In this document: positions 2,013 to 56,780 of the stretch, in pieces
Numbering within the stretch: the first letter of the stretch is position 1
How the letters are laid out: the number at the start of each line of letters is the position of its first letter
From: Microgenomates group bacterium
GTDB lineage: Bacteria; Patescibacteriota; Microgenomatia; UBA10105; UBA927
NCBI GenBank assembly: GCA_049287205.1
Contig: JBAQFJ010000001.1
Span: 943,653 to 1,007,652 of the forward strand
Direction: 5' to 3'
DNA: 64,000 bases
Made by a program: the position numbers and the translations under genes
Notes under the pieces: model-generated
Databases searched by the model: none
The model's input: the letters and a program-made list of their open reading frames with translations, nothing else
What the model was told of the DNA's origin: nothing

Positions 2013-3314
2013 TTACTTCATTTTTCCACTCAAAAATGTTTCATACGCGCCGAGATCTAGAAGCCCGTGTCCTGACAAATTAAACAGAATGGTTTTCTTT
2101 TTCCCTTCTTTTTTTGCCTGTAGCGCTTCCACGATCATGTGTTTAATTGCATGGGCTGATTCCGGCGCAGGGATAATCCCCTCAGTTTCAATAAAAAGCT
2201 GTGCTGCAGCAAACACTTCTTTTTGATCATAGGCAGCCGCCTCAATAAGTTTTTTGTTGTACAAAAAACTCACCAGTGGTGAGACGCCGTGATATCTGAG
2301 CCCTCCCGCATGAATTGGTGAAGGCACATATCCACTGCCGACCGTATACATTTTCATGAGGGGTGTCATCCCTGCGGTATCACCATAGTCATAGCGATAT
2401 TTACCCTTCGTCAGTGACGGACACGCTGTCGGTTCAACAGCAATACAGCGTAACTTTTTTGTGTTACCCATTATCTTGTCTGCCAGAAATGGAAATGCGA
2501 CGCCTGCAAAATTGCTCCCTCCTCCACAGCAACCAATGATGACATCAGGATATTCGCTTACCTGTTCTAGTTGTTTTTTTGCTTCCTGACCAATGATGGT
2601 TTGGTGAAGCATCACATGATTGAGTGCACTTCCCAGAGCATACCGTGTATTTCTACCGGATACTGCAACTTCAATCGCTTCAGATATCGCCATCCCCAAG
2701 CTTCCATTGGTATGTGGATAGTCTTTCAAAAATTGTTTTCCACAAACAGTTTTTGTTGACGGGCTTGCGTGCACCACCCCTCCATAGAGATGTATGATAG
2801 TTTTTCTGTATGGTTTTTGGTCATAGGAACTTTGCACCATAAACACAACGCACTTCATTCCAAATAATTTGGTTGCAAGGGACAGTGCTGACCCCCATTG
2901 TCCAGCACCAGTTTCCGTCGTCAAGGTCGTTATGCCTTCCTTTTTGTTGTAATATGCTTGGGGTAAGGCAGTATTGAATTTATGACTTCCCACAGGCGAC
3001 ACCCCCTCATATTTTGCAAAGATATGCGCAGGTGTTCCCAGTCGTTTTTCAAGACGGCGCAGCCGTAAAAGCGGTGACGGTCTATATGTTTTATAGAGCT
3101 CATACACCTCATCGGGTATCGGCACTGTTTTTTCCAAGGTTGTTTCCTGACGTATAAGTTCGCGCGGAAAAATTGGTGCCAAATCCGCAGCTTGTAATAC
3201 CTGTTTTGTTTTCGGATGCAGATACGGATCCGGCAACCCTACCCCGTACTTTTTTAAGTAATAGGGTAAGTTCAGATATGTTTTTGCTAGTATTTCTTCA
3301 TTTTGTTTTTTCAT
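2013..3314 (-). CDS. trpB: Tryptophan synthase beta chain, long TrpB2-type (PLP-dependent)
   Basis: The PLP lysine motif VGSHKFNTAL and the GAGQWGSALS region are present. A length of 433 aa is typical of TrpB2. Confidence 0.8.
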   Translation of the reverse strand: MKKQNEEILAKTYLNLPYYLKKYGVGLPDPYLHPKTKQVLQAADLAPIFPRELIRQETTLEKTVPIPDEVYELYKTYRPSPLLRLRRLEKRLGTPAHIFAKYEGVSPVGSHKFNTALPQAYYNKKEGITTLTTETGAGQWGSALSLATKLFGMKCVVFMVQSSYDQKPYRKTIIHLYGGVVHASPSTKTVCGKQFLKDYPHTNGSLGMAISEAIEVAVSGRNTRYALGSALNHVMLHQTIIGQEAKKQLEQVSEYPDVIIGCCGGGSNFAGVAFPFLADKIMGNTKKLRCIAVEPTACPSLTKGKYRYDYGDTAGMTPLMKMYTVGSGYVPSPIHAGGLRYHGVSPLVSFLYNKKLIEAAAYDQKEVFAAAQLFIETEGIIPAPESAHAIKHMIVEALQAKKEGKKKTILFNLSGHGLLDLGAYETFLSGKMK

Positions 3315-4632: not shown

Positions 4633-4983
4633 TTAATAGAATAACCCCCACCAGATTTTCCAATTGGTCGTAGCACTGGTTTTTTTGAGTGTTTCCCCAT
4701 TCCCTAGTTCCTGATTTATCAGGATGATTGTTTCGCCTGGGCGCGCCATATTCAGCTTCATTCTTGCTTCAGACTCGATAAATTCCGGAGACCTCGTAAA
4801 TTCAAGTTTTTTTTGCAGTGCAGCTTCCCTTTTTTGAAGCTCCACAAGAATCTTTTCCCGATCTTCTCTGGCATTTTGTCGTTTTATCGTGGAAGAGATG
4901 GAAGAAATGAGGCTAATACACCCAAAAATGAGGCTAATTAACAGAAGTAATGGGAAAAATCGAACTATGGGTTTTTGCTTCAT
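4633..4983 (-). CDS. Septum formation initiator FtsB/DivIC-like protein
   Basis: N-terminal TM helix, a coiled-coil segment, and an ARMKLNMARPGETII signature of the FtsB/DivIC family. Confidence 0.6.
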   Translation of the reverse strand: MKQKPIVRFFPLLLLISLIFGCISLISSISSTIKRQNAREDREKILVELQKREAALQKKLEFTRSPEFIESEARMKLNMARPGETIILINQELGNGETLKKTSATTNWKIWWGLFY

Positions 4984-5048
4984 AGCTAATTTATTTTTTA
5001 TACCTTGTTATTGCTGTGCATATGTGATATTATAGGCTTTATCTTGCC

Positions 5049-5064
5049 TGAGGCAATTGCCTCA
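5049..5064. promoter_or_regulatory. Perfect 16-bp palindrome TGAGGCAATTGCCTCA about 30 nt upstream of the recombinase gene
   Basis: Read directly from the sequence. It could be an operator or a recombination-site half. Confidence 0.35.
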
Positions 5065-5095
5065 TTATTAGACCTGCTTCAAACATATACGCATT

Positions 5096-5956
5096 ATGAG
5101 TGTTGATCTTAAGGCTACAAATGAACAGTTTGTTGAATATTTAGCGTCTCGCAAGCGAGCACGTGCTACCATCGTAGCATATAAAAAAGACATTGACCAA
5201 ATGTTGACGTTTTTTCAGACTGCAGAGAAAAAAGCCATTGGGGACATCACAAAAGATGAAATTGACGCTTTTTTGAAGAAATTGACCAGTGACAGCTATA
5301 CCCCAAAATCAGTATCCCGAAAAATTAACTCCATAAAAACCTACTTCCGGTTTCTTAAGATTTCCAATATCATTGCCGCTGATCCAGCGCTTGAGGTAGA
5401 ACATCCAAAATATGATGTAAAACCGCCTCGGATTTTGTCTAAACTTGAATATCGTGCGCTTCGTGATGCATGCAGGGGCGATGTCCGCATGTATGCGATC
5501 GTTGAACTGTTTTTGCAGACAGGTGTCCGCATTGGAGAACTTGCGGCACTTATGGTTGTTGACGTGAAAGCTACGGAACTGCATATTGCCAGTCAAGAAG
5601 GTCATGAAGAGCGAATGGTACCTCTAAATAAGGCAGCGCTCGAGGCCCTCCATAAATACATGGAAATCCGAAACAGTGAGGCAAAAAGCAATGCGCTCTT
5701 TATCACAAAAACAGGTCGCCCACTTTTGATTCGAAATATCAGGACTGCAATTGACCGGTATTTTAGAATTGCTGGCATTGAAGGAGCAAAGGTAAATGAC
5801 CTTCGTCACACCTTTATCGCCCATCATTTGATGGCGGGCACTCCCATTATGACACTGTCAAAACTTGTCGGACACAAACGCCTTTCCACGACAGAAAAAT
5901 ATTTGGAGCTTATTAAGGGACAACAGTCTGAGAATGTGAAGCTTGAAGAGTTATAA
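5096..5956 (+). CDS. Tyrosine site-specific recombinase (XerC/XerD / phage-integrase family)
   Basis: C-terminal catalytic region LRHTFIAHHLMAGTPIMTLSKLVGHKRLSTTEKYLEL carrying the R...HxxR...Y signature. Length 286 aa. Confidence 0.8.
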   Translation: MSVDLKATNEQFVEYLASRKRARATIVAYKKDIDQMLTFFQTAEKKAIGDITKDEIDAFLKKLTSDSYTPKSVSRKINSIKTYFRFLKISNIIAADPALEVEHPKYDVKPPRILSKLEYRALRDACRGDVRMYAIVELFLQTGVRIGELAALMVVDVKATELHIASQEGHEERMVPLNKAALEALHKYMEIRNSEAKSNALFITKTGRPLLIRNIRTAIDRYFRIAGIEGAKVNDLRHTFIAHHLMAGTPIMTLSKLVGHKRLSTTEKYLELIKGQQSENVKLEEL

Positions 5957-43383: not shown

Positions 43384-43935
43384 CAATAAAAAGTTCGTTT
43401 CGCGGGATAAGCGATTACTGAGTAATCTTTTATCTCGCGACAAGAGCGCGTCGTCGCGTAAACCGCGACAATAGCACTTTTACAATATCAATAGTATCTT
43501 CCTTTATAAATAGGACAAGGAAGATACATGGTTTTTTTGAATGAAATATGAGTAGTTACATCGTAAGGGATAATCTTAAATGTTGATTACCTGTTACGAT
43601 GACATTTCGTTGGGCGACAATTTTTTTATTAAATGAGTCGAGAAAAATAGAGCAAAGCGCGCTAATTAATTTTAGCTCCTTTGTTCTCTGCAACGCTTTT
43701 AAAGTTGATAATGGATGCCCTGGGTATTCATGCCGAGGAAGGACGTATATGACAGCGATATTCGTCGGGGAGGAGTCATAATCCTGTGATCCGGCGGTTT
43801 CCGAATGGGGAAACCCGTCTAGTGAAGAACTAGTCAATGTACGATGAAGATAACCGAAAGGTTGGGATAGTCGTATGTAGGATACCGGGCGAACTGAAAC
43901 ATCTCAGTAGCCTGAGGAATAGAAATCAAGTACGA

Positions 43936-43967
<32 letters not shown>

Positions 43968-45684
43968 AAGTCTAAACCACAGCGCAAGTTGTGGGGTTGT
44001 AGGGCTTTCGATCTGGAATGCAATTGGTGATAACAGAATACCGTGGAATAGGAAACCAAAGAACGTGAAAGTCGTGTATGTGAAATTACCAATTCTCCTA
44101 GAGAGTTCCTAAGTACCATGGACCACGAAGGGTCTGTGGGAATCTGGGTCAACCACGATCCAAGACTAAATACATGAATGCACCGATAGTGAACAAGTAC
44201 CATGAGGGAAAGGTGAAAAGCACCCCGGAAGGGGAATGAAATAGTACCTGAAATTATCAACTAACAAACAGACGAAGTCCTGCAATCGCAAGATTTGGAT
44301 AACGTCGTGCCTATTGAAGAATGAACCGGCGAGTTGCCCAGTACGGCTTTGCTTAATCAAGTAACCCTTGAGGAGGCGTAGTGAAAGCGAGGTCTAATTG
44401 ACCGATTATGTTGTACTGGACAGACCCGAAACCAGGTGAGCTAACCATGAGCAGGGTGAATGTTGACGAAAGCCAACAAGAGGCCCGAACTCGTCAGAGC
44501 TGCAAATCTGTGAGATGACTTGTGGTTAGGGGTAATATGCCTATCGAACCTGGAGATAGCTGGTTCTCCCCGAAATATATTTAGGTATAGCGGTTACTAA
44601 TTCCCGGAAGGGGTAGAGCACTGAATGATACGTGTTTCGCAAGGAATACGCATCAATCAAACTCCGAATACTTTCCGTGATACCGTAACTAGTCAGACAT
44701 GCACGGCTAAGCGCGTGTGTCAAGAGGGCAACAGCCCGGACTTACATCTAAGGTCTCTAAGTGTGTGCTCAGTGGTTAAGGAAGTTATGAATTTAAGACA
44801 CCCAGGAAGTTGGCTCAGAAGCAGCCACCTTTTAAAGAACGCGTAACAGCGCACTGGATGAAATTCGTAGCGCCGAAAATGAACGAGGCTCAAGCACGCC
44901 ACCGAAGATTAAGATGTGCCGTAAGGCACGTGGTAGGGGAGCGTTCTGTTCTGCGGTGAAGGTTAGGCTGTAAGGCTGACTGGAGCGGACAGAAGTGAGA
45001 ATGCCGGTATGAGTAGCGTTTGGAAGTGAGAATCTTCCATGCCGAATGCGCAAGGTTTCCGAAGCAACGTTCGTCGACTTCGGGTAAGTCGGATCTAAGC
45101 CGAGGCCATTATTTTGATGGCGTAGGTCGATGTATAAACGGTTTATATTCCGTTACTATAGTGTATTGATTAAGACACAAAGGAATGACAATGAGGGATT
45201 TGTTGATGTCTCGCACTCGCGGGATCTAAGCATTAAAGTAGTGAGGACTGGTAAATCCGTTCTCATGTTTAACTAAAGATGTGGGGGAGTTTGAGGAGCA
45301 ATCCGATGACAACATCAATCGTTTCTTATTCGAGAAAAGTTTCGTTGTGAAATACATTGTATCCGTACTAATAACCAACACTGGTGCGCTGGTAGAGTAT
45401 ACCAAGGCAAGCGGGCGACAGCAGTTTAAGGAACTCGGCAACAAAAACTAGGTGTAACTTATTGGAGATACCTTACCTAGAGCAATCTAGGTCACAGTAA
45501 ACGACACTATGCAACTGTTTAACTAAAACACAGGTCTCTGCGAAGCGGAAACGCAACGTATAGGGGCTGACACCTGCCCAGTGCCGGTAAGTTAAAAATG
45601 GTCGGTAAACAAAAACGTAAGTTTTTTTAGCTGGCTTTTTAAGCTCCGGTGAACGGCAGCAGTAACTATAACTGTTCTATGGTA

Positions 45685-46292
45685 AATTTTCGTTGCTATA
45701 GTGAGGTAGACAAACCTCTCTTTTATTCCCCGTGCAAAAGGAAGGCGGGATAAAAGAAAAATTGTGCTAAATGCTGGAAACTCTGAGTATCTTGTGCTAC
45801 TATGTGTTATATGACACATAGTGAAAAAGCATCAAGTGCAGACAATCAGCAGGAAAGATTGGATCCGTGGTGGATTGTAGGATTTGTTGATGGAGAAGGA
45901 TGTTTTTCCGTTAGTACGTTTAAAAATTCAACTTGTTCAAGTGGGTTTCAAACTCTTTATGAGTTTGTGGTCACACAAGGAGAAACGAGTAAACGAGCTA
46001 TGGAAGCAATCAAAACTTATTTTGGTTGCGGAGCGATTTATATAAATCGCAGACATGATAACCATCATCACGATCTTTTACGATATTGTGTACGAAAGCA
46101 GGAAGATTTGAAAACAAAAATCATCCCGTTTTTCAGAAAATATCCATTACAATCTGCAAAACAAGAACAATTTGAGACATTTTGTCAAAAATTGTTTGAT
46201 CCAAAATCCTCAACGACTATACGCACAACTCGGTAAAACGAGAAGATATAGTCTGATCTTCATGGCGACATGAAGTTAACAAATTTTTATGA
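45685..46292 (+). other. Group I intron in 23S domain IV, after GGTA and before GCGAAATTCC (E. coli ~1931 site), carrying a LAGLIDADG ORF
   Basis: The exon sequence is interrupted between ...AACTGTTCTATGGTA and GCGAAATTCCTTGTCGGG. Boundaries are accurate to within 1-2 nt. Confidence 0.7.
45802..46236 (+). CDS. LAGLIDADG homing endonuclease (single-motif, I-CreI-like), intron-encoded
   Basis: VGFVDGEGCF motif. Located inside the 23S intron. Confidence 0.8.
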   Translation: MCYMTHSEKASSADNQQERLDPWWIVGFVDGEGCFSVSTFKNSTCSSGFQTLYEFVVTQGETSKRAMEAIKTYFGCGAIYINRRHDNHHHDLLRYCVRKQEDLKTKIIPFFRKYPLQSAKQEQFETFCQKLFDPKSSTTIRTTR

Positions 46293-46912
46293 GCGAAATT
46301 CCTTGTCGGGCAAGTTCCGACCCGCACGAAAGGTAGAATGACATAGTGACTGTCTTAAACTGTTACCCGGCGAAATTGAAATGGCTGTGAAGATGCGGCC
46401 TACTCACACATGGACAAAAAGACCCCATGAAGCTTTACTGCAATTTGGCACTGAAGAGTTTATTTTAACTGTCGAGTATAGGTGGGAGCCTTCGGGCGAA
46501 CAATGGAATACCACTCTTTAAAATGAATGAATCTTACTTACTCCTACATAAAAATCTAGGAGCAGGACACTGTCTGATGGGCAGTTTAACTGGGGAGGTT
46601 GCCTCCAAAAGTGTAACGGAGGCGTGCAAAGGTTGGCTAATCCTGAATGGAAACCAGGACGTGTCGTGCAAACGCGATAAGCCAGCTTGACTGCGAGACG
46701 TACATGTCGAGCAGATGCGAAAGCAGGCGTTAGTGATCCTCGATACCCTCGTGGGAGGGTTCGGGCTTAACGGATAAAAGCTACTCTGGGGATAACAGGC
46801 TGATCGCTTCCGAGAGTCCATATCGACGAGGCGGTTTGGCACCTCGATGTCGGCTCATCCTATCCTGGGGCTGTAGAAGGTCCCAAGGGTCCGGCTGTTC
46901 GCCGGTTAAAAG

Positions 46913-46948
<36 letters not shown>

Positions 46949-47310
46949 AGACCTTAGTGGAATAGACGCCACTATAACGAGCTGTCCATCCTTTACCGTT
47001 CTAGAATCTTTGTATATCGAGAAATTTTAAAGGATCCCGCAAAACAATACTAATTATATTGAATGCGGGAATAAATCTGACTAATTGCTGGAAACACTCA
47101 GTATCTAATACTACTTTTAAAAAAAGTAACAATGTATTAGTGGAGTCAATCAGCAGGGAAGGCCCCGCCTTGGCGGGGAACCCTCAGAGACTATATGTCA
47201 GATCTGGCTTCGCCAGAAAGATATAGTCCGAACTGTATGGCGACATACAGACTGCAGCAGAAATGCGTGCAGAGTCGTTTTTACATCAAAAAACGATATT
47301 AACATTATTG
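46949..47310 (+). other. ORF-less group I intron in 23S domain V, inserted after GAGACAGT and before TCGGTC (E. coli 2593 / I-CreI-type site)
   Basis: The exon resumes with TCGGTCTCTATCC...CTAGTACGAGAGGACCG. The intron ends in G. It shares an AAGATATAGTC...ATGGCGACAT core-like block with intron 1. Confidence 0.7.
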
Positions 47311-47754
47311 TCGGTCTCTATCCTGTGTGAGCGTTCGATTCTTGAGGGGAGTTCTCTCTAGTACGAGAGGACCGAGAGGAACAGATCCCTGGTTTGCCTG
47401 TTGTCACCCTGAGAGGTGGCACCGCAGGGTAGCTAGATCTGGAAGGGATAAGTGCTGAAAGCATCTCAAGCACCAAGCCCACCCCAAGATGAAGAATCGT
47501 TGAAGATCCGTTGTAGATGACAACGTTGATAGGCGAGAAGTGTACGCACCGTGAGGTGTTCTAGCTTACTCGTACTAATTGATCGAATGTTGTGGAGAAC
47601 AAAGGAAGATTTGTTCTATTCCCAAACGATATGAACATCGCCTCTGGGATCAGCAACAAGATTATCCCTTATGTGTAATTACTCATTCAAAAAGTGTGAA
47701 TATTGATATTAACAATTAAATATTGGTAAAATAGCGAATCGAGAACCGCTCTAG

Positions 47755-48536: not shown

Positions 48537-49340
48537 ATGAACAAACAAATACTTTCTACTCAGCTTGAACAATTTGGTCTTGATGAAATTGAGGTTCAAA
48601 TATACCTGAATTTACTCGAAACTGGTGCTAAGACTCCTCTTGATCTTTCTCGTGAAACAAACATTAATCGAACAAAGATATATCGGTATCTTGATCGCTT
48701 GAAGGCAAAAAAGCTTGTTGAGGAAGTCAATTCCGGTCGAGGGATGCATTTAAAAGCATCAGATCCTGAAAATTTACAGATTTTGCTTCTCGAAAAAGAA
48801 CATCAAATAACATCACAAAAAGAATTGCTTCCAGGTTTGCTTCAAGAGCTTACTAAAATACCAAATACGCAGCAGTCATTTTTTGAGATGAAACAATATC
48901 ACGGAGATGACGGGCTCAAACAAATGTTATGGAATTGGTCATCAGCAAAAAAAGAGATTTTATTATATGGGTATCAGACAATGAATGAGATTGTCGGAAG
49001 GAAATTTGCTGAAATGCTCCGTGAGGAGCAGGTAAAAAAGAAGATTACTGTTTATGAAATAGAAGAGGAAATTGATCAAGGTAATTTTACCGGTAAATTT
49101 ACCTATACTGATGTTCAAAATTGGGGTAAGTATTACACTCCTCGATATGTTGATCCAAAATTGTTAAAAATACGGCAATATACAGGTATTTATAATAATA
49201 CGGTTTGCATCATGAATTGGGATCATGGTGTGAAAGTGGGAGTCGAAATTATCAATGAGGTGTACGCTTCAATGCAAAAACAGCTGTTTTGGAACACCTG
49301 GAATCAGATAGGGGAAAAGCCGATTCATTCCAAAAAGTAA
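48537..49340 (+). CDS. TrmB-family (winged HTH) transcriptional regulator
   Basis: N-terminal FGLDEIEVQIYLNLLETGAKTPLDLSRETNINRTKIYRYLDRLKAKKLVEE wHTH. Start at MNKQILS. The longer ORF-track start overlaps the minus-strand ORF. Confidence 0.65.
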   Translation: MNKQILSTQLEQFGLDEIEVQIYLNLLETGAKTPLDLSRETNINRTKIYRYLDRLKAKKLVEEVNSGRGMHLKASDPENLQILLLEKEHQITSQKELLPGLLQELTKIPNTQQSFFEMKQYHGDDGLKQMLWNWSSAKKEILLYGYQTMNEIVGRKFAEMLREEQVKKKITVYEIEEEIDQGNFTGKFTYTDVQNWGKYYTPRYVDPKLLKIRQYTGIYNNTVCIMNWDHGVKVGVEIINEVYASMQKQLFWNTWNQIGEKPIHSKK

Positions 49341-53419: not shown

Positions 53420-53564
53420 GTAAAAGATGAGTATACCACCATTTTTTGTAAATGCAAGCTATGAGTATATATACTATCCAATACTTCGGTATTTTCCTTA
53501 TTTTATTAGTATTTTTTATTATTTTCAGATTCGTTTCATTGTTTCTGTGGTACAATGGGATTCG

Positions 53565-54356
53565 ATGAAAAAAGGAATTATTCAACCGGTTGTTCAGAAG
53601 CGCGCAGAAAAAAGTGTAACGCCGTCATCTGCGTTTACCAAGGAACTTGCGCAGGAGATTGTGCGTAATCTTACTGCATTTGGAAAATTGACAGCCCGAC
53701 CATTTCAAAAACGTACCCACCCACTAGCCAAGAAAAAATCAATACCGCCAGTTGGTGAATACCCAGTGCTTGTGGATACGAGTGTCCTTATTGATGGAAG
53801 AATCCTGCCGATTGTAAACAGCGGGTTTTTTGTGGCTACACTTATCGTCCCACAATTTGTGCTTGCAGAGATTCAGCATATTGCCGATAGCGCCGATATG
53901 ATCAGACGTTCAAAGGGAAGACGGGGAATGGACGTGGTGAACGCCTTAAAAAATCAACGGGTGAATGCAGGAGTGAAAGTGAAAATTGTGGCGGATGATC
54001 CGCAGGAGATCAAAGAAGTCGATCATAAGCTTGCATATTTGTCTAAACTTTGGAAAGCACGGCTTTTAACCGTTGATTTTAATCTTGCACAGATGGCCCG
54101 TGCGCAGGGTGTAAAAGTATTGAATGTGAATGATCTTGCACAAGCGCTTAAAGTTGCGCTCATTTCCGGCGAAGAGTTAACCGTAAAGATCACGCATAGT
54201 GGAAAAGAACGGAATCAAGGGGTCGGGTACTTGCCCGACGGAACCATGGTGGTGGTCGAGGATACCAAAGAGCGGATAGGACAAGATGTGGTGGTGGTTA
54301 TTACAAAAGTACATCAGACGCCCGCAGGACAGTTATTCTTCGCACGGCTTAAATAA
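53565..54356 (+). CDS. PIN + TRAM domain protein (YacL-like)
   Basis: PIN N-terminal acidic residues (VLVDTSVLIDGRI) and a C-terminal TRAM OB-fold (VGYLPDGTMVVVEDTKERIGQDVVVVITKV). Start at MKKGII, preceded by a TACAAT -10 element. Confidence 0.65.
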   Translation: MKKGIIQPVVQKRAEKSVTPSSAFTKELAQEIVRNLTAFGKLTARPFQKRTHPLAKKKSIPPVGEYPVLVDTSVLIDGRILPIVNSGFFVATLIVPQFVLAEIQHIADSADMIRRSKGRRGMDVVNALKNQRVNAGVKVKIVADDPQEIKEVDHKLAYLSKLWKARLLTVDFNLAQMARAQGVKVLNVNDLAQALKVALISGEELTVKITHSGKERNQGVGYLPDGTMVVVEDTKERIGQDVVVVITKVHQTPAGQLFFARLK

Positions 54357-54592
54357 TCCTCTCATCGTAGAACACGTCTTTATAAAAGACGTTCGCATAG
54401 GTATGTTCAACTTCGTAGTTGTTCTCGCTCACTAAGAGACAATGTCAATTACAGTAAAGATGTATGTTTGAGGCGTACTATGACATTTTCTGTTCTTTTT
54501 TAAAGCCGTATTCTACGCTTTTTTGAATATTTCTCCATATATATAGGAAGGATAGGGGAAAGGGGTTATCCTGAAGTTATCCACAAAAAGTT

Positions 54593-54889
54593 TTGAAAAT
54601 ACAAAGAGAGCGTAATGACAATATAATTATCATTAAAATAACTATAAGACTATGGTTTTTGACAGCAATATTTCCTATGGGACTTGACAAGGTCGAGAAA
54701 AAGGTTTTCAATGAATATATGTCAGTAAAACTACTGCTCAAGCAGATGGGTTTGGGAAGTTCAGGAGATAAGGCTAAGGCGCGGCTATCTCCGATGGTTC
54801 GTGAGCGCCAATCGTTTGAATCTGAGGTTCGGCGACAATTTGTCGAACTGAAGAAAAAGGGAATCAGTATTCCCGTATTTACGTTATAA
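54593..54889 (+). CDS. Possible small protein. The real start may be an internal Met (MGLDK or MSVKLL, 56-70 aa).
   Basis: The ORF is followed 30 nt later by a clean intrinsic terminator. No recognised domain. Confidence 0.3.
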   Translation: MKIQRERNDNIIIIKITIRLWFLTAIFPMGLDKVEKKVFNEYMSVKLLLKQMGLGSSGDKAKARLSPMVRERQSFESEVRRQFVELKKKGISIPVFTL

Positions 54890-54920
54890 CAAACAGTATT
54901 TACTAGCAGATTTGGGGGAA

Positions 54921-54950
54921 AAGACCACCGATGAGGTGGTCTTTTTTGTT
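54921..54950 (+). terminator. Intrinsic terminator AAGACCACC-GATGA-GGTGGTCTT followed by TTTTTGTTT
   Basis: Read directly from the sequence. Confidence 0.7.
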
Positions 54951-54988
54951 TCAGGAATTACTCAGGAAAGAGTAGGAAAATAGAAGAG

Positions 54989-55005
54989 GATTTGGGTTTG
55001 GGTCA
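54989..55005. repeat. 17-bp repeat GATTTGGGTTTGGGTCA, copy 1, in the non-coding island
   Basis: An identical 17-mer occurs at 55147-55163. A related AGCAGATTTGGG occurs at 54905 and 55143. Confidence 0.6.
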
Positions 55006-55146
55006 AAGGTGTTCCACCACATTTTCCTTCTCGCCTTAGTTCATTCGAACTGCGGCTCGAAGAGCGATTGTTGGCGGACAATAAAGACTAATTTCGAAGA
55101 CTCAATAAGTCTTTATTGCATTAAAAAAGCATCACTACCGCTAGCA

Positions 55147-55163
55147 GATTTGGGTTTGGGTCA
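55147..55163. repeat. 17-bp repeat GATTTGGGTTTGGGTCA, copy 2
   Basis: Identical to copy 1. Confidence 0.6.
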
Positions 55164-55508
55164 CCTTTTTCAAGATGATTTTGCTACGAATAGTAATGCT
55201 TTTCTTTTGGATATTGCCGTAAAGCAATATCTTATACCGCAGAATAACGAAAATGAGTAAATGTTGTCAAATTTTTTTTTGAAGCTAAATTATTTCACGC
55301 GGATTGTTGGAATGGCAAAATTTCATGATGAATTTCACGCCATAAAAAAAGTCGAGATATGCTGTATGGGAAATAGTTTGCCTGCCCAACAAACTATTCC
55401 CCGTACAAAACACCTCGACCGTTTTTTTTGAAAAAAGATTTTTTATAAAAATCTTATAGTTTGCCGATTGTAACGCGACAACGGGAAGTTGTCAATTAGG
55501 GAGATGCC

Positions 55509-56780
55509 CTATAACGATTCTTTTTTTAGGAGAGTGTGTGCAGCAAGTTTTCCAAATTCCACTGCATAGTTCGTTCCGCGATCCCATGGATAGATAGAAT
55601 CAAGATTTGCCAGATATATGTGTTTGTATGGTGTGACAATTACAGGTGCACACTTCGAATAATTGCAGGTATGCACGGGCTGCGCGTTAGGAACGGTAAA
55701 TAGAAACATGTTGGTGATATCTTTTTTTGAAAAATGAGGAGCAATTTTTTTGAGGTATGGGAAAAAGAGTGCTAGCAGTTCCTCTTTCGTTTTTGTAATG
55801 AATGCATGACCATCCGGCAGATAATTGCCGACATAACAAATATGGTTTCCTCCATAGTGGGATGACGCAATCATATTTGTGTGATCAACAACTGCCAAAA
55901 ATGGAAATGATCGGTCGTTAATGTTGAGCCAATACGTCTTGTTGAGTATTGGTTTTTTTGTTTCAAGAATGAGTGTTTGCGCCCAAAGGTGTGGAATTGC
56001 AAGTAATTGTTTTTTGTAGTGTTCGTCAAACCCGCCGATTGCCGCGGCAATTGAGGAGGGGACAGTATAGAGGATTGCATCAAACTGACGCTCATTGATG
56101 AGAAATCCGGTTGTCGTTTTTTTGATTGCTGTTATTGTGGTATTTGTCAGTATAGTGCCGCTATTTTTTTTGACAGCGTCTGCTAGCACTTCAACAAACC
56201 GAGAAAATCCGCCTCGAAAATACCCGAGACGGGGGGTTCTTTTGTAGAGTCTCGCCCAAAGCCAAGATGCTGCCACTTTGTCTGCGAATGGCCCAAATTT
56301 TGCGTCCAAGAGCGGTTCCCAGATCCGCTGCCATGCAATTTTACCGTTGATAATCTGAAATAATTTTTTTGCTGTGATGTGTTCGAGTGGCTTCCAAAAT
56401 GGATTGCATTTCATGAGGGCCGCAGTCATCCCCGTTCTTACGCGATCAATAAACGGCAATCCCGGGAATTTTAAAATAGTGAGTGGTGTGTCAAATGGAT
56501 GTTGCTCGCCATTAAGATATATAGAAGTGGTTGGGGAGAGGATAAGCATATCGTTTTTTAGTCCAAGTTCACGGGCAAGACTGATGAGTGCGCGGTCGTT
56601 GGTAAAAAAATGGTGATAGGTTTTTTCCAATTTCCAGCTCCATGAGGCGCTAGAAAAACCGTTTGCGAGTCCTCCGAGTGATTCATCCTTTTCAAACACA
56701 GTAACCGCGGCACCGCGTTTAGTGAGTTCATATGCGGCACTTAGCCCTGTGATCCCGCCGCCGATGATTGCAACATTCAT
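55509..56780 (-). CDS. FAD-dependent oxidoreductase of the UDP-galactopyranose mutase (Glf) / amine-oxidase-like superfamily
   Basis: N-terminal MNVAIIGGGITGLSAAYEL...VFEKDESLGGL dinucleotide fold, and TYHHFFTND resembling the Glf GAHIFHTND motif. Length 423 aa. Confidence 0.5.
   Translation of the reverse strand: MNVAIIGGGITGLSAAYELTKRGAAVTVFEKDESLGGLANGFSSASWSWKLEKTYHHFFTNDRALISLARELGLKNDMLILSPTTSIYLNGEQHPFDTPLTILKFPGLPFIDRVRTGMTAALMKCNPFWKPLEHITAKKLFQIINGKIAWQRIWEPLLDAKFGPFADKVAASWLWARLYKRTPRLGYFRGGFSRFVEVLADAVKKNSGTILTNTTITAIKKTTTGFLINERQFDAILYTVPSSIAAAIGGFDEHYKKQLLAIPHLWAQTLILETKKPILNKTYWLNINDRSFPFLAVVDHTNMIASSHYGGNHICYVGNYLPDGHAFITKTKEELLALFFPYLKKIAPHFSKKDITNMFLFTVPNAQPVHTCNYSKCAPVIVTPYKHIYLANLDSIYPWDRGTNYAVEFGKLAAHTLLKKESL

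Follow-up and report, generated by a model that had tools for sequence, protein, structure and literature searches.

Between a PIN-TRAM gene (53427-54356) and a gene for an FAD oxidoreductase (55509-56780, minus strand, with its 3' end towards the gap), the 64,000-nt stretch of contig JBAQFJ010000001.1 analyzed here (the window) contains an intergenic island without any open reading frame (ORF) of 100 aa or more. The longest mechanically called ORF within it has 98 aa (54593-54889). A preliminary description, made from the sequence alone, had singled out this gap and suggested that it might be a regulatory or small-RNA island, a decayed mobile element, or an origin- or partition-like region. 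Comparison with related loci supports the first of these options. On the plus strand the island carries a gene for a small protein, and on the minus strand it carries two conserved small RNA (sRNA) genes, sRNA-1 and sRNA-2. Our reading, which we hold to be probable, is that these form a conserved three-gene regulatory module of Candidatus Gottesmanbacteria, in which sRNA-2 represses the small-protein mRNA by antisense pairing.

Conservation was assessed in about 30 related loci of Candidatus Gottesmanbacteria, an uncultured lineage of the Candidate Phyla Radiation (CPR), labeled L followed by a number. L001-L003 are 100% identical to the window, the close clade comprises 23 non-redundant loci, and the distant family members include L038, L040, L042, L043, L068 and L069. 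The gene order in relatives is S1, RadA, (a hypothetical gene), PIN-TRAM, small ORF, ~450 nt of non-coding DNA and FAD oxidoreductase; distant relatives keep the RadA, PIN and small-ORF portion. The block with the DnaA box, the promoters, the hairpins and the repeat copies A, B and D, all described below, are invariant or near-invariant in the 23 close-clade loci, and the distant members retain the same elements with variant or co-varying sequence, so that the elements are kept across orthologous intergenic regions beyond what chance would give. What the comparison establishes is conservation, coding selection, RNA covariation and strand, the conservation of promoters and terminators, and complementarity together with its covariation. 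The island had also been described as AT-rich; its GC content is indeed lower than that of the window, but the difference is modest (37.4% vs. 41.6%).

The small-protein gene (54719-54889, plus strand) encodes 56 aa (MSVKLLLKQMGLG...KGISIPVFTL) and was recognized from its homologs and from codon-position entropy. The mechanical 98-aa ORF has 33 close homologs, and a profile search with the small protein returned 75 cluster representatives at 50% identity and at least 592 proteins. Family members are 43-135 aa long, with a C-terminal ending of the form ...ERxxFExEVRxQFxxLKEKGLSIPVFTL. In codons 25-56 the entropy is ~1.1 bits at the third position vs. 0.13-0.34 bits at positions 1-2, a pattern that indicates purifying selection on a protein. 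Judged by this conservation, the 56-aa ORF is a genuine gene of an unannotated protein family. The preliminary description had left its length between 56 and 98 aa: the 56-aa gene stands, but the 98-aa extension does not: the upstream ATG exists in 25 loci, and in 10 of them in-frame stops close the extension. A 71-aa reading (MGLDK...) fails in the same way, and the stretch upstream of the 56-aa frame is instead the promoter. The other mechanical ORFs of the island (55009-55260 and 55261-55431) have no Pfam match. In codons 1-14, which contain the predicted pairing site A, the wobble positions are nearly frozen (0.13-0.28 bits), and this near-absence of synonymous variation points to an additional constraint at the RNA level.

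The 56-aa protein is hydrophilic and has no transmembrane segment (isoelectric point (pI) 10.7, net charge +7, grand average of hydropathy (GRAVY) -0.26, maximum 19-residue hydropathy 0.14). An AlphaFold2 model (predicted local distance difference test score 77) has helices at residues 3-9 and 25-46 joined by a disordered linker, and the long helix is amphipathic or charged rather than membrane-spanning. Searches of Pfam-A, NCBIfam and PDB sequences returned no significant match for it, none of the 120 family members listed of the 592 carries a Pfam domain, and those named in their source are called 'hypothetical protein'. The family is vertically inherited, single-copy and syntenic, which suits a housekeeping or chromosomal regulator better than an addiction or defense module.

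The promoter of the small-protein mRNA (54671-54718, plus strand) consists of TTTCCTATGGGAC-TTGACA (-35 hexamer at 54684-54689), a 17-nt spacer of variable sequence, TTCAAT (-10 hexamer at 54707-54712) and 6 nt, followed directly by the ATG. The TTTCCTATGGGAC-TTGACA block is invariant, and the TTGACA-17-TTnAnT-6-ATG/GTG geometry is free of insertions and deletions in 26 of the 28 loci checked. Across loci the -10 hexamer takes the form TT(C/G/T/A)A(A/C)T, with exactly 6 nt to the start codon. The exceptions are L038, in which the -10 hexamer differs, and L043, which has a long 5' untranslated region (5'UTR) of ~190 nt with a Shine-Dalgarno sequence. A distance of 6 nt between the -10 hexamer and the ATG would place the transcript start at the start codon, and the mRNA is thus probably leaderless, with its 5' end at or very near the ATG at 54719. 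At the other end of the gene, site B (CTAGCAGATTTGGGGG, 54903-54918) lies directly 5' of an intrinsic terminator, the two together occupying 54903-54950 on the plus strand. This terminator, which the preliminary description had already placed after the small ORF, has a stem of 54919-54929 and 54935-54945 followed by a T run, and its pairing is preserved in relatives through compensatory changes (GACCACC/GGTGGTC vs. GACATCC/GGATGTC).

sRNA-2 (~115 nt, 55235→55121, minus strand) was delineated from an alignment of 23 loci (A3), covariation, folding energy, and its promoter and terminator. Its predicted fold starts with a 5' hairpin (55231-55210) of covarying pairs (GAUAUUGC/GCAAUAUC, GGUGUUGC/GCAAUACC and GGUUUUCGU/ACGAAACC). 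A conserved long stem (55203-55182 with 55146-55125) then encloses an inner hairpin (55178-55161) and an unpaired, C-rich seed of 14-15 nt, ACCCAAACCCAAAUC (55161-55147), and the RNA ends in a U6 tail. The inner hairpin covaries and is closed by a GNRA-type cap in most loci (GAAA in the window, GCAA or GCGA elsewhere). Three U.G pairs of the long stem are each present in 22 of the 23 loci, and these would be A.C mismatches on the plus strand. Over the alignment, RNAalifold and pair counting found 97% of the cells to be paired and double changes in 10 pairs, a result that none of 500 shuffles equaled. The minimum free energy (MFE) is -40.2 kcal/mol (z -8.2) on the minus strand vs. -33.2 kcal/mol (z -4.2) on the plus strand. 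The block 55118-55275 has 79-98% identity in loci that span it entirely, vs. 70-93% for the ORF, and no plus-strand reading frame through it survives across loci, most of them having a stop after ..ADLGLG.

The sRNA-2 promoter (55285-55241, minus strand) comprises an A-tract resembling an UP element (GCTTCAAAAAAAAA, 55285-55272), TTGACA (55270-55265), an 18-nt spacer and TATTCT (55246-55241). The hexamers are kept in 21 of the 23 close-clade loci and the spacer sequence is free to vary. A covariance model (CM R1) detected exactly one copy of sRNA-2 next to the small ORF wherever a locus had enough flanking sequence, the six distant loci included. In L035 the sRNA-2 terminator abuts the ORF in the manner of a bidirectional terminator. 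These sequence signatures mark sRNA-2 as a genuine RNA gene of the minus strand. Features general to base-pairing sRNAs, namely an own promoter, an intrinsic terminator and a conserved structure, are found for both sRNAs of the island; a seed with covariation is found for sRNA-2 only.

The seed also accounts for the repeats that had drawn attention to the island. Two identical 17-mers, GATTTGGGTTTGGGTCA, had been noted at 54989 and 55147; even with up to three mismatches allowed, the window holds no further match, where 0.32 would be expected. The two reported copies of CTAGCAGATTTGGG are located at 54903 and 55141. By sequence, these repeats are copies of the complement of the sRNA-2 seed. 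Copy A, or site A (ACTACTGCTCAAGCAGATGGGTTTGGG, 54730-54756, plus strand), covers nt 12-38 of the ORF; copy B is site B; copy C (54989-55005, plus strand) is a perfect 17-nt complement of the seed; and copy D (55141-55163, plus strand) is the plus-strand image of the seed itself. Because sRNA-2 is transcribed from the opposite strand, copies A, B and C are complementary to its seed. Copy C also occurs in L034 and L018 and is absent from many relatives, and L042 has a further perfect seed complement outside the mRNA (UUUGGGUUUGGGCU, ~3205-3260), directly after a TTGACA-17-TACAAT promoter. Such complements might act as decoys or as additional targets.

Sites A and B are the predicted pairing sites within the mRNA. 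At site A the seed and the adjoining 3' arm of sRNA-2 are complementary to ORF nt 12-38, and the predicted duplex has ~25 bp with one 2x2 internal loop (-40.3 kcal/mol, z -7.3). The duplex at site B has -32.6 kcal/mol (z -6.5), and for each site none of 300 shuffles scored as well. These scores come from seed-restricted runs and their shuffles, as RNAduplex on the full-length RNAs gave uninformative long duplexes.

In several lineages the seed and its mRNA targets have changed together. In L036 the seed CCUAAGUCUGCUA is accompanied by UAGCAGACUUAGG at site B and UUAGGUUUGGG at site A, and in L037 the seed CCCAAUUGCUAGCGG is accompanied by CCGCUGGCAAUUGGG at site B in the 3'UTR. The seed of L038 has lost one U, and its site B lacks the same U. 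L042 has a variant seed to which site A is still matched, and site A co-varies with the seed in L036, L038 and L042. In L043 the seed has changed entirely: the unrelated CCUCUCUCGUCUAG, along with some of the adjoining arm, is matched by UAGACGAGAGA close to where the long 5'UTR is predicted to begin. Rearranged loci fit the same pattern. In L028 an extra ORF stands between the small ORF and site B, and site B and the terminator are still at the end of the transcript. In L069 the ORF and the sRNA-2 gene share a strand, a candidate promoter precedes the latter, and the best duplex is still at ORF nt 11, so that what is kept is RNA complementarity in trans rather than the orientation of DNA repeats or convergent transcription.

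These observations bear on whether the repeats and conserved blocks might be DNA operators that control the flanking genes, with no functional sRNAs present. Several motifs have no RNA explanation, namely the DnaA box, TAGAGCGTA, AACTATAAGA, the CGTGAAAT repeats and the TTCAG repeats, but the compensatory changes, GNRA-type caps, strand-specific G.U pairs and promoter-plus-terminator units are signatures of RNA genes. The reversal of sRNA-2 in L069, the movement of sRNA-1 together with its promoter to the other strand (below), and the wholly changed seed of L043, with which the mRNA changed, also speak against operators, and we consider this explanation very unlikely.

Under the antisense reading, sRNA-2 would be transcribed convergently to the mRNA from its own strong promoter and would form a 5' hairpin and then a long terminator stem, the latter displaying the unpaired 14-15-nt C-rich seed. 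Pairing at nt 12-38 of a leaderless mRNA would cover the zone where the ribosome lands and block initiation, and the duplex at site A could also form a double-stranded substrate for cleavage, leading to decay. Site B, at the 3' end, might provide a fast first contact or control the stability of that end. The net outcome would be post-transcriptional repression of the small protein, relieved when synthesis of the mRNA exceeds that of sRNA-2, for example after induction through the upstream sites. Transcription, the leaderless start, the direction of regulation, the involvement of DnaA and what the protein does are all things that we infer from sequence.

Several points weigh against this model. 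The -10 hexamers of the mRNA promoter (TTCAAT, TTGAAT, TTTACT) do not have the canonical A at position 2, GTG occupies the leaderless start position in L037 and L040, and all RNA ends in the locus are predicted ones. The duplexes of L040 (z -1.5) and L069 (z -1.4) are no better than those of shuffled sequences, and duplex scoring found no convincing sRNA-2 target in L068 (z -0.1). In the clade of the window itself neither the seed nor the two targets vary, and the repeats there could be kept uniform by gene conversion instead of selection for pairing. Finally, the sequence of the sRNA-2 long stem is invariant beyond what a terminator requires, which hints at a protein partner outside the model.

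The last point can be taken further: instead of acting as antisense regulators, sRNA-2 with its invariant long stem and sRNA-1 with an invariant GGGCAGG loop might bind or sequester a protein, perhaps the basic 56-aa protein itself, and sites A and B might be mimics of the binding site that serve autoregulation. The stem sequence is invariant even in distant loci with a different seed, the basic, helical protein contains a disordered linker, sRNA-1 has no covarying complementarity to the mRNA or to sRNA-2, and the protein gene and both RNA genes are always linked. However, sites A and B are complementary to sRNA-2 and not similar to it as RNA, and therefore cannot mimic its structure. Covariation between seed and target is a prediction of base pairing, and no RNA-binding domain was detectable in the protein by the searches of Pfam, NCBIfam and PDB sequences. 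We regard this alternative as quite unlikely, and retain antisense repression by sRNA-2 as the preferred account.

The second RNA, sRNA-1 (~117 nt, 55460→55344, minus strand), was delineated from an alignment of 21 loci (A6), covariation and folding energy. Its predicted fold has a 5' hairpin (55456-55436) and a long imperfect hairpin (55426-55390 with 55380-55344) with an invariant apical GUUGGGCAGGC that contains a GGGCAGG loop, and it ends in a U7 tail. Thirteen of the 25 consensus pairs in the long hairpin have compensatory changes, and the outer stem has a wholly different sequence between lineages with pairing maintained. The MFE on the minus strand is -48.5 (z -9.1) vs. -36.4 on the plus strand, and conserved G.U pairs exist on the minus strand only. 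The preliminary description had recognized its TTGACA-17-TACAAT promoter on the minus strand; the promoter is real, but it lies at 55495→55467 (TTGACA 55495-55490, TACAAT 55472-55467; 11 of 12 consensus positions) and not at 55477-55506. All 21 loci have consensus-like hexamers with a 17-nt spacer of variable sequence, and the exact TTGACA and TACAAT occur in 19. In L037, L040, L042, L068 and L069, TTGACA-17-TACAAT is found on the other strand, upstream of the sRNA-1 core, and L038 has the core with a weaker -10 (TAAAAT) on that other strand. A promoter that moves with its RNA to the other strand marks sRNA-1 as an autonomous gene.

Expanded forms of sRNA-1, 250-330 nt long, are present in L034, L018, L023, L013, L037 and L038. 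In these a second complete core hairpin and a GC-rich hairpin are nested in, or stand beside, the first GGGCAGG loop, an arrangement that might reflect structural expansion or self-targeting insertion. The possibility that sRNA-1 acts as a sponge for sRNA-2 was rejected: on inspection, the two share only ~5 bp of complementarity, and the GGGCAGG loop is unchanged where the seed changes (L043). Most likely sRNA-1 binds a protein or a target outside the locus. The region between the two sRNA genes (55286-55343, minus strand) is conserved and contains two CGTGAAAT repeats, which possibly are regulator sites for the sRNA-2 promoter. They correspond to the two ATTTCACGC repeats listed earlier, both of which exist, at 55292 and 55332; the second is thus not at 55343.

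Neither RNA resembles a cataloged family. A scan with Rfam 15 at the gathering threshold found no match in the island, in seven related loci or in the expanded version of L038, and at E-values up to 10 there were only chance-level matches (microRNAs, isrD, Phe leader, EF0408_EF0409). The last of these is to RF02637, an RNA of the Enterococcus faecalis par locus, at 55077-55234 on the minus strand; it overlaps sRNA-2, a curious coincidence in view of the par-like layout discussed below, but its score of 19.6 bits, against a gathering threshold of 440, is at chance level. ARAGORN found no tRNA or tmRNA in the island.

Upstream of the mRNA promoter, two tandem DnaA-box-like sites (54565-54585, plus strand) comprise a degenerate GTTATCCTG (54565-54573) and an invariant AAGTTATCCACA (54574-54585). 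The latter includes the consensus DnaA box TTATCCACA at 54577-54585, and both box and variant had been correctly reported. AAGTTATCCACA is unchanged in 22 of the 23 close-clade loci, the remaining one having TAGTTATCCACA, and it is retained, partly as ACTTATCCACA, in the distant L038, L040, L042, L043, L068 and L069. The degenerate GTTnTCC usually lies one helical turn upstream of it. DnaA binding at AAGTTATCCACA, with DnaA acting as a transcription factor, would be a plausible input to the small-protein gene. Further conserved alignment columns at 54606-54652 (plus strand) contain (T)AGAGCGTAA (54606-54615) and AACTATAAGACTA (54640-54652). The 10-mer AACTATAAGA occurs twice, at 54640-54649 on the plus strand, ~70 nt before the small ORF, and at 55452-55461 on the minus strand, where sRNA-1 is predicted to begin. 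Relatives conserve both copies, which form an inverted repeat (I12) in the window, and their sharing suggests a protein-binding or initiation element.

A consensus DnaA box with a degenerate neighbor, a slightly low GC content, many repeats and lineage-specific insertions might be taken as marks of an origin of replication or a partition site, or else of a decayed mobile element or a pseudogene remnant. We give this next to no credence. There is no switch of GC skew at the island: within the window the skew is positive on both sides, and its cumulative minimum lies near 3-5 kb. The window has 31 matches to the DnaA box at up to one mismatch vs. ~20 expected, and they are not clustered; the island has only the one consensus and the one degenerate box. 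No dnaA gene was seen among the ORFs checked, which were the island flanks and the ORFs at 0.1-10.9 kb near the skew minimum, where tRNA synthetases and an integrase are encoded. A tyrosine recombinase (XerC/D-like or integrase, 5096-5956) stands there beside a tRNA cluster. The parS palindrome tGTTNCACGTGAAACa has no match in the island at up to three mismatches, the ATTTCACGC repeats being only half-site-like. A near-palindromic parS-like sequence, TGTTTCACGAGAAAGA, with two mismatches to the consensus, is found ~6 kb upstream of the island (48644-48659).

As for a mobile or decaying element, the island is single-copy in the 64-kb window (no other copies by blastn or tblastx, and none of sRNA-2 by its covariance model), it has no transposase and no terminal repeats, and in relatives it shows conserved synteny and purifying selection. 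The protein profile had no match among IMG/VR viral contigs. Twenty-three exact IMG/VR matches to a 16-mer of the sRNA-2 stem were dismissed as chance, as none fits the covariance model.

The remaining parts of the island vary between lineages. The ~200 nt that separate the PIN-TRAM stop from the DnaA boxes (54364-54564) are shared with L021 only (78% identity over 206 nt), other relatives having ~10 nt there, and this segment folds well on both strands. The spacer between the mRNA terminator and sRNA-2 (54951-55117) is also variable and holds, besides copy C, a TTCAG element and an optional module. The former, at 54951-54988 just past the terminator, reads TTCAG-N6-7-TTCAG followed by a purine-rich GAGGAG(A)AUAG, and it is conserved in most loci. 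The optional module (55041-55117) adjoins the sRNA-2 terminator and contains the 11-bp inverted repeat CAATAAAGACT/AGTCTTTATTG of the preliminary description, whose arms are at 55079-55093 and 55104-55118. It is also present in L012, L036, L026, L023 and L034 and missing from many relatives; in L026, L023 and L036 it has, in addition, an inverted copy of an sRNA-2 arm (ACTATTCGTAGC). The module may be a further small RNA or a remnant of a duplication. In L011, an insertion of three small genes, one of them ParE-toxin-like, separates the sRNA genes from the oxidoreductase (4948-5788). Elsewhere in the window, the 23S rRNA gene (43688-47597, 3.9 kb) contains a group I intron (46993-47250), with tRNA-Ala upstream and 5S downstream of it and no 16S gene in the window.

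CPR bacteria are uncultured and have tiny genomes. We know of almost no description of post-transcriptional regulation in them, and a search of one literature library found no paper that combines Gottesmanbacteria with sRNA or antisense terms. The locus provides two covariation-supported sRNA families outside Rfam and a small-protein family of ~600 members outside Pfam, all three of which annotation resources could add. It also gives a concrete pairing model with two target sites in an apparently leaderless mRNA, and it illustrates that long, seemingly 'empty' intergenic regions of streamlined CPR genomes can carry a dense content of RNA genes.

Among known systems, the closest in layout is par of the Enterococcus faecalis plasmid pAD1, with its fst mRNA (RNA I) and antitoxin (RNA II). 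There, convergent transcription of a small ORF and a small RNA runs through direct repeats in the DNA and yields complementary RNAs, with one complementary region in the zone of translation start and another at the 3' end and terminator (PMC7472228). Copies A and B face copy D in the window in the same way, and a small ORF (56 aa) with a complementary antisense sRNA gene at the same locus is the shared feature. The differences are considerable. The window protein is hydrophilic and basic and has neither a transmembrane helix nor a PXXXG motif, unlike the hydrophobic toxin. Its mRNA is apparently leaderless, so that no 5' stem-loop sequesters a Shine-Dalgarno sequence. Although the window has convergent promoters and direct repeats, each RNA in this family has a separate terminator except in L035, the sRNA gene can sit on the other strand (L069), and the locus invariably includes a second sRNA gene. 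It is inherited vertically, within a CPR lineage, and has no sequence or Rfam relationship to par.

The likeness raises a narrower version of our reading, a true type I toxin-antitoxin system in which the 56-aa protein would be toxic and sRNA-2 its RNA antitoxin. An ORF of fewer than 60 aa with a neighboring antisense sRNA, convergent transcription across direct repeats as in par (PMC7472228), and the bidirectional-like terminator of L035 would all fit. Hydrophilic type I toxins are moreover known, RalR (PMC4041452) and SymE (PMC1891008) being examples. On the other side are the character of the protein (GRAVY -0.26, pI 10.7, no transmembrane segment), the single copy in strict synteny with radA and the PIN-TRAM gene under strong family-wide purifying selection, and the lack of the protein in viral contigs. 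We judge a toxin-antitoxin function unlikely.

Other pairs whose sRNA gene neighbors its target but does not overlap it, as in the window, are tisB/istR-1, zorO/orzO and ralR/ralA. In pairs of the zorO/orzO and ralR/ralA type, complementarity of ~15-25 nt is reported to repress the toxin mRNA (PMC3919570, PMC4041452), and symE/symR is a cis-encoded type I case with a non-membrane protein (PMC1891008). The window locus differs from the neighbor-encoded pairs in having two target sites, at the coding 5' end and in the 3'UTR, and an unrelated protein family.

Several of these type I toxins respond to DNA damage by way of a LexA box. The upstream box of the window would occupy an analogous place, though it is DnaA-like and not LexA-like. 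In this respect the locus recalls sda of Bacillus subtilis, which encodes a small checkpoint protein from a promoter with DnaA boxes: in both, a gene for a very small helical protein lies behind a consensus DnaA box outside the origin, the box being a predicted one here. The window protein has no sequence similarity to Sda, and we know of no sRNA partner of sda. If the DnaA-box link were true, replication status would be tied to an RNA-gated effector in a lineage for which, to our knowledge, replication checkpoints are uncharacterized. One could go as far as to propose that DnaA, reporting replication status, sets transcription through the invariant box, that sRNA-2 gates translation of a leaderless mRNA, that the lineage-wide small protein encoded beside radA is a checkpoint effector for replication or DNA damage, and that sRNA-1, with its nested expansions in some species, is a new class of structured RNA in the circuit, which would then be among the first recognizable sRNA circuits of CPR bacteria. 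As a whole we think this proposal unlikely. Were the checkpoint role correct, the locus would be a functional analogue of SOS-induced type I toxins or of Sda, built from unrelated parts. The kind of mechanism proposed for sRNA-2 is already known from the systems above; what appears to be new are the parts, together with a leaderless target, dual sites, a companion RNA and a DnaA box.

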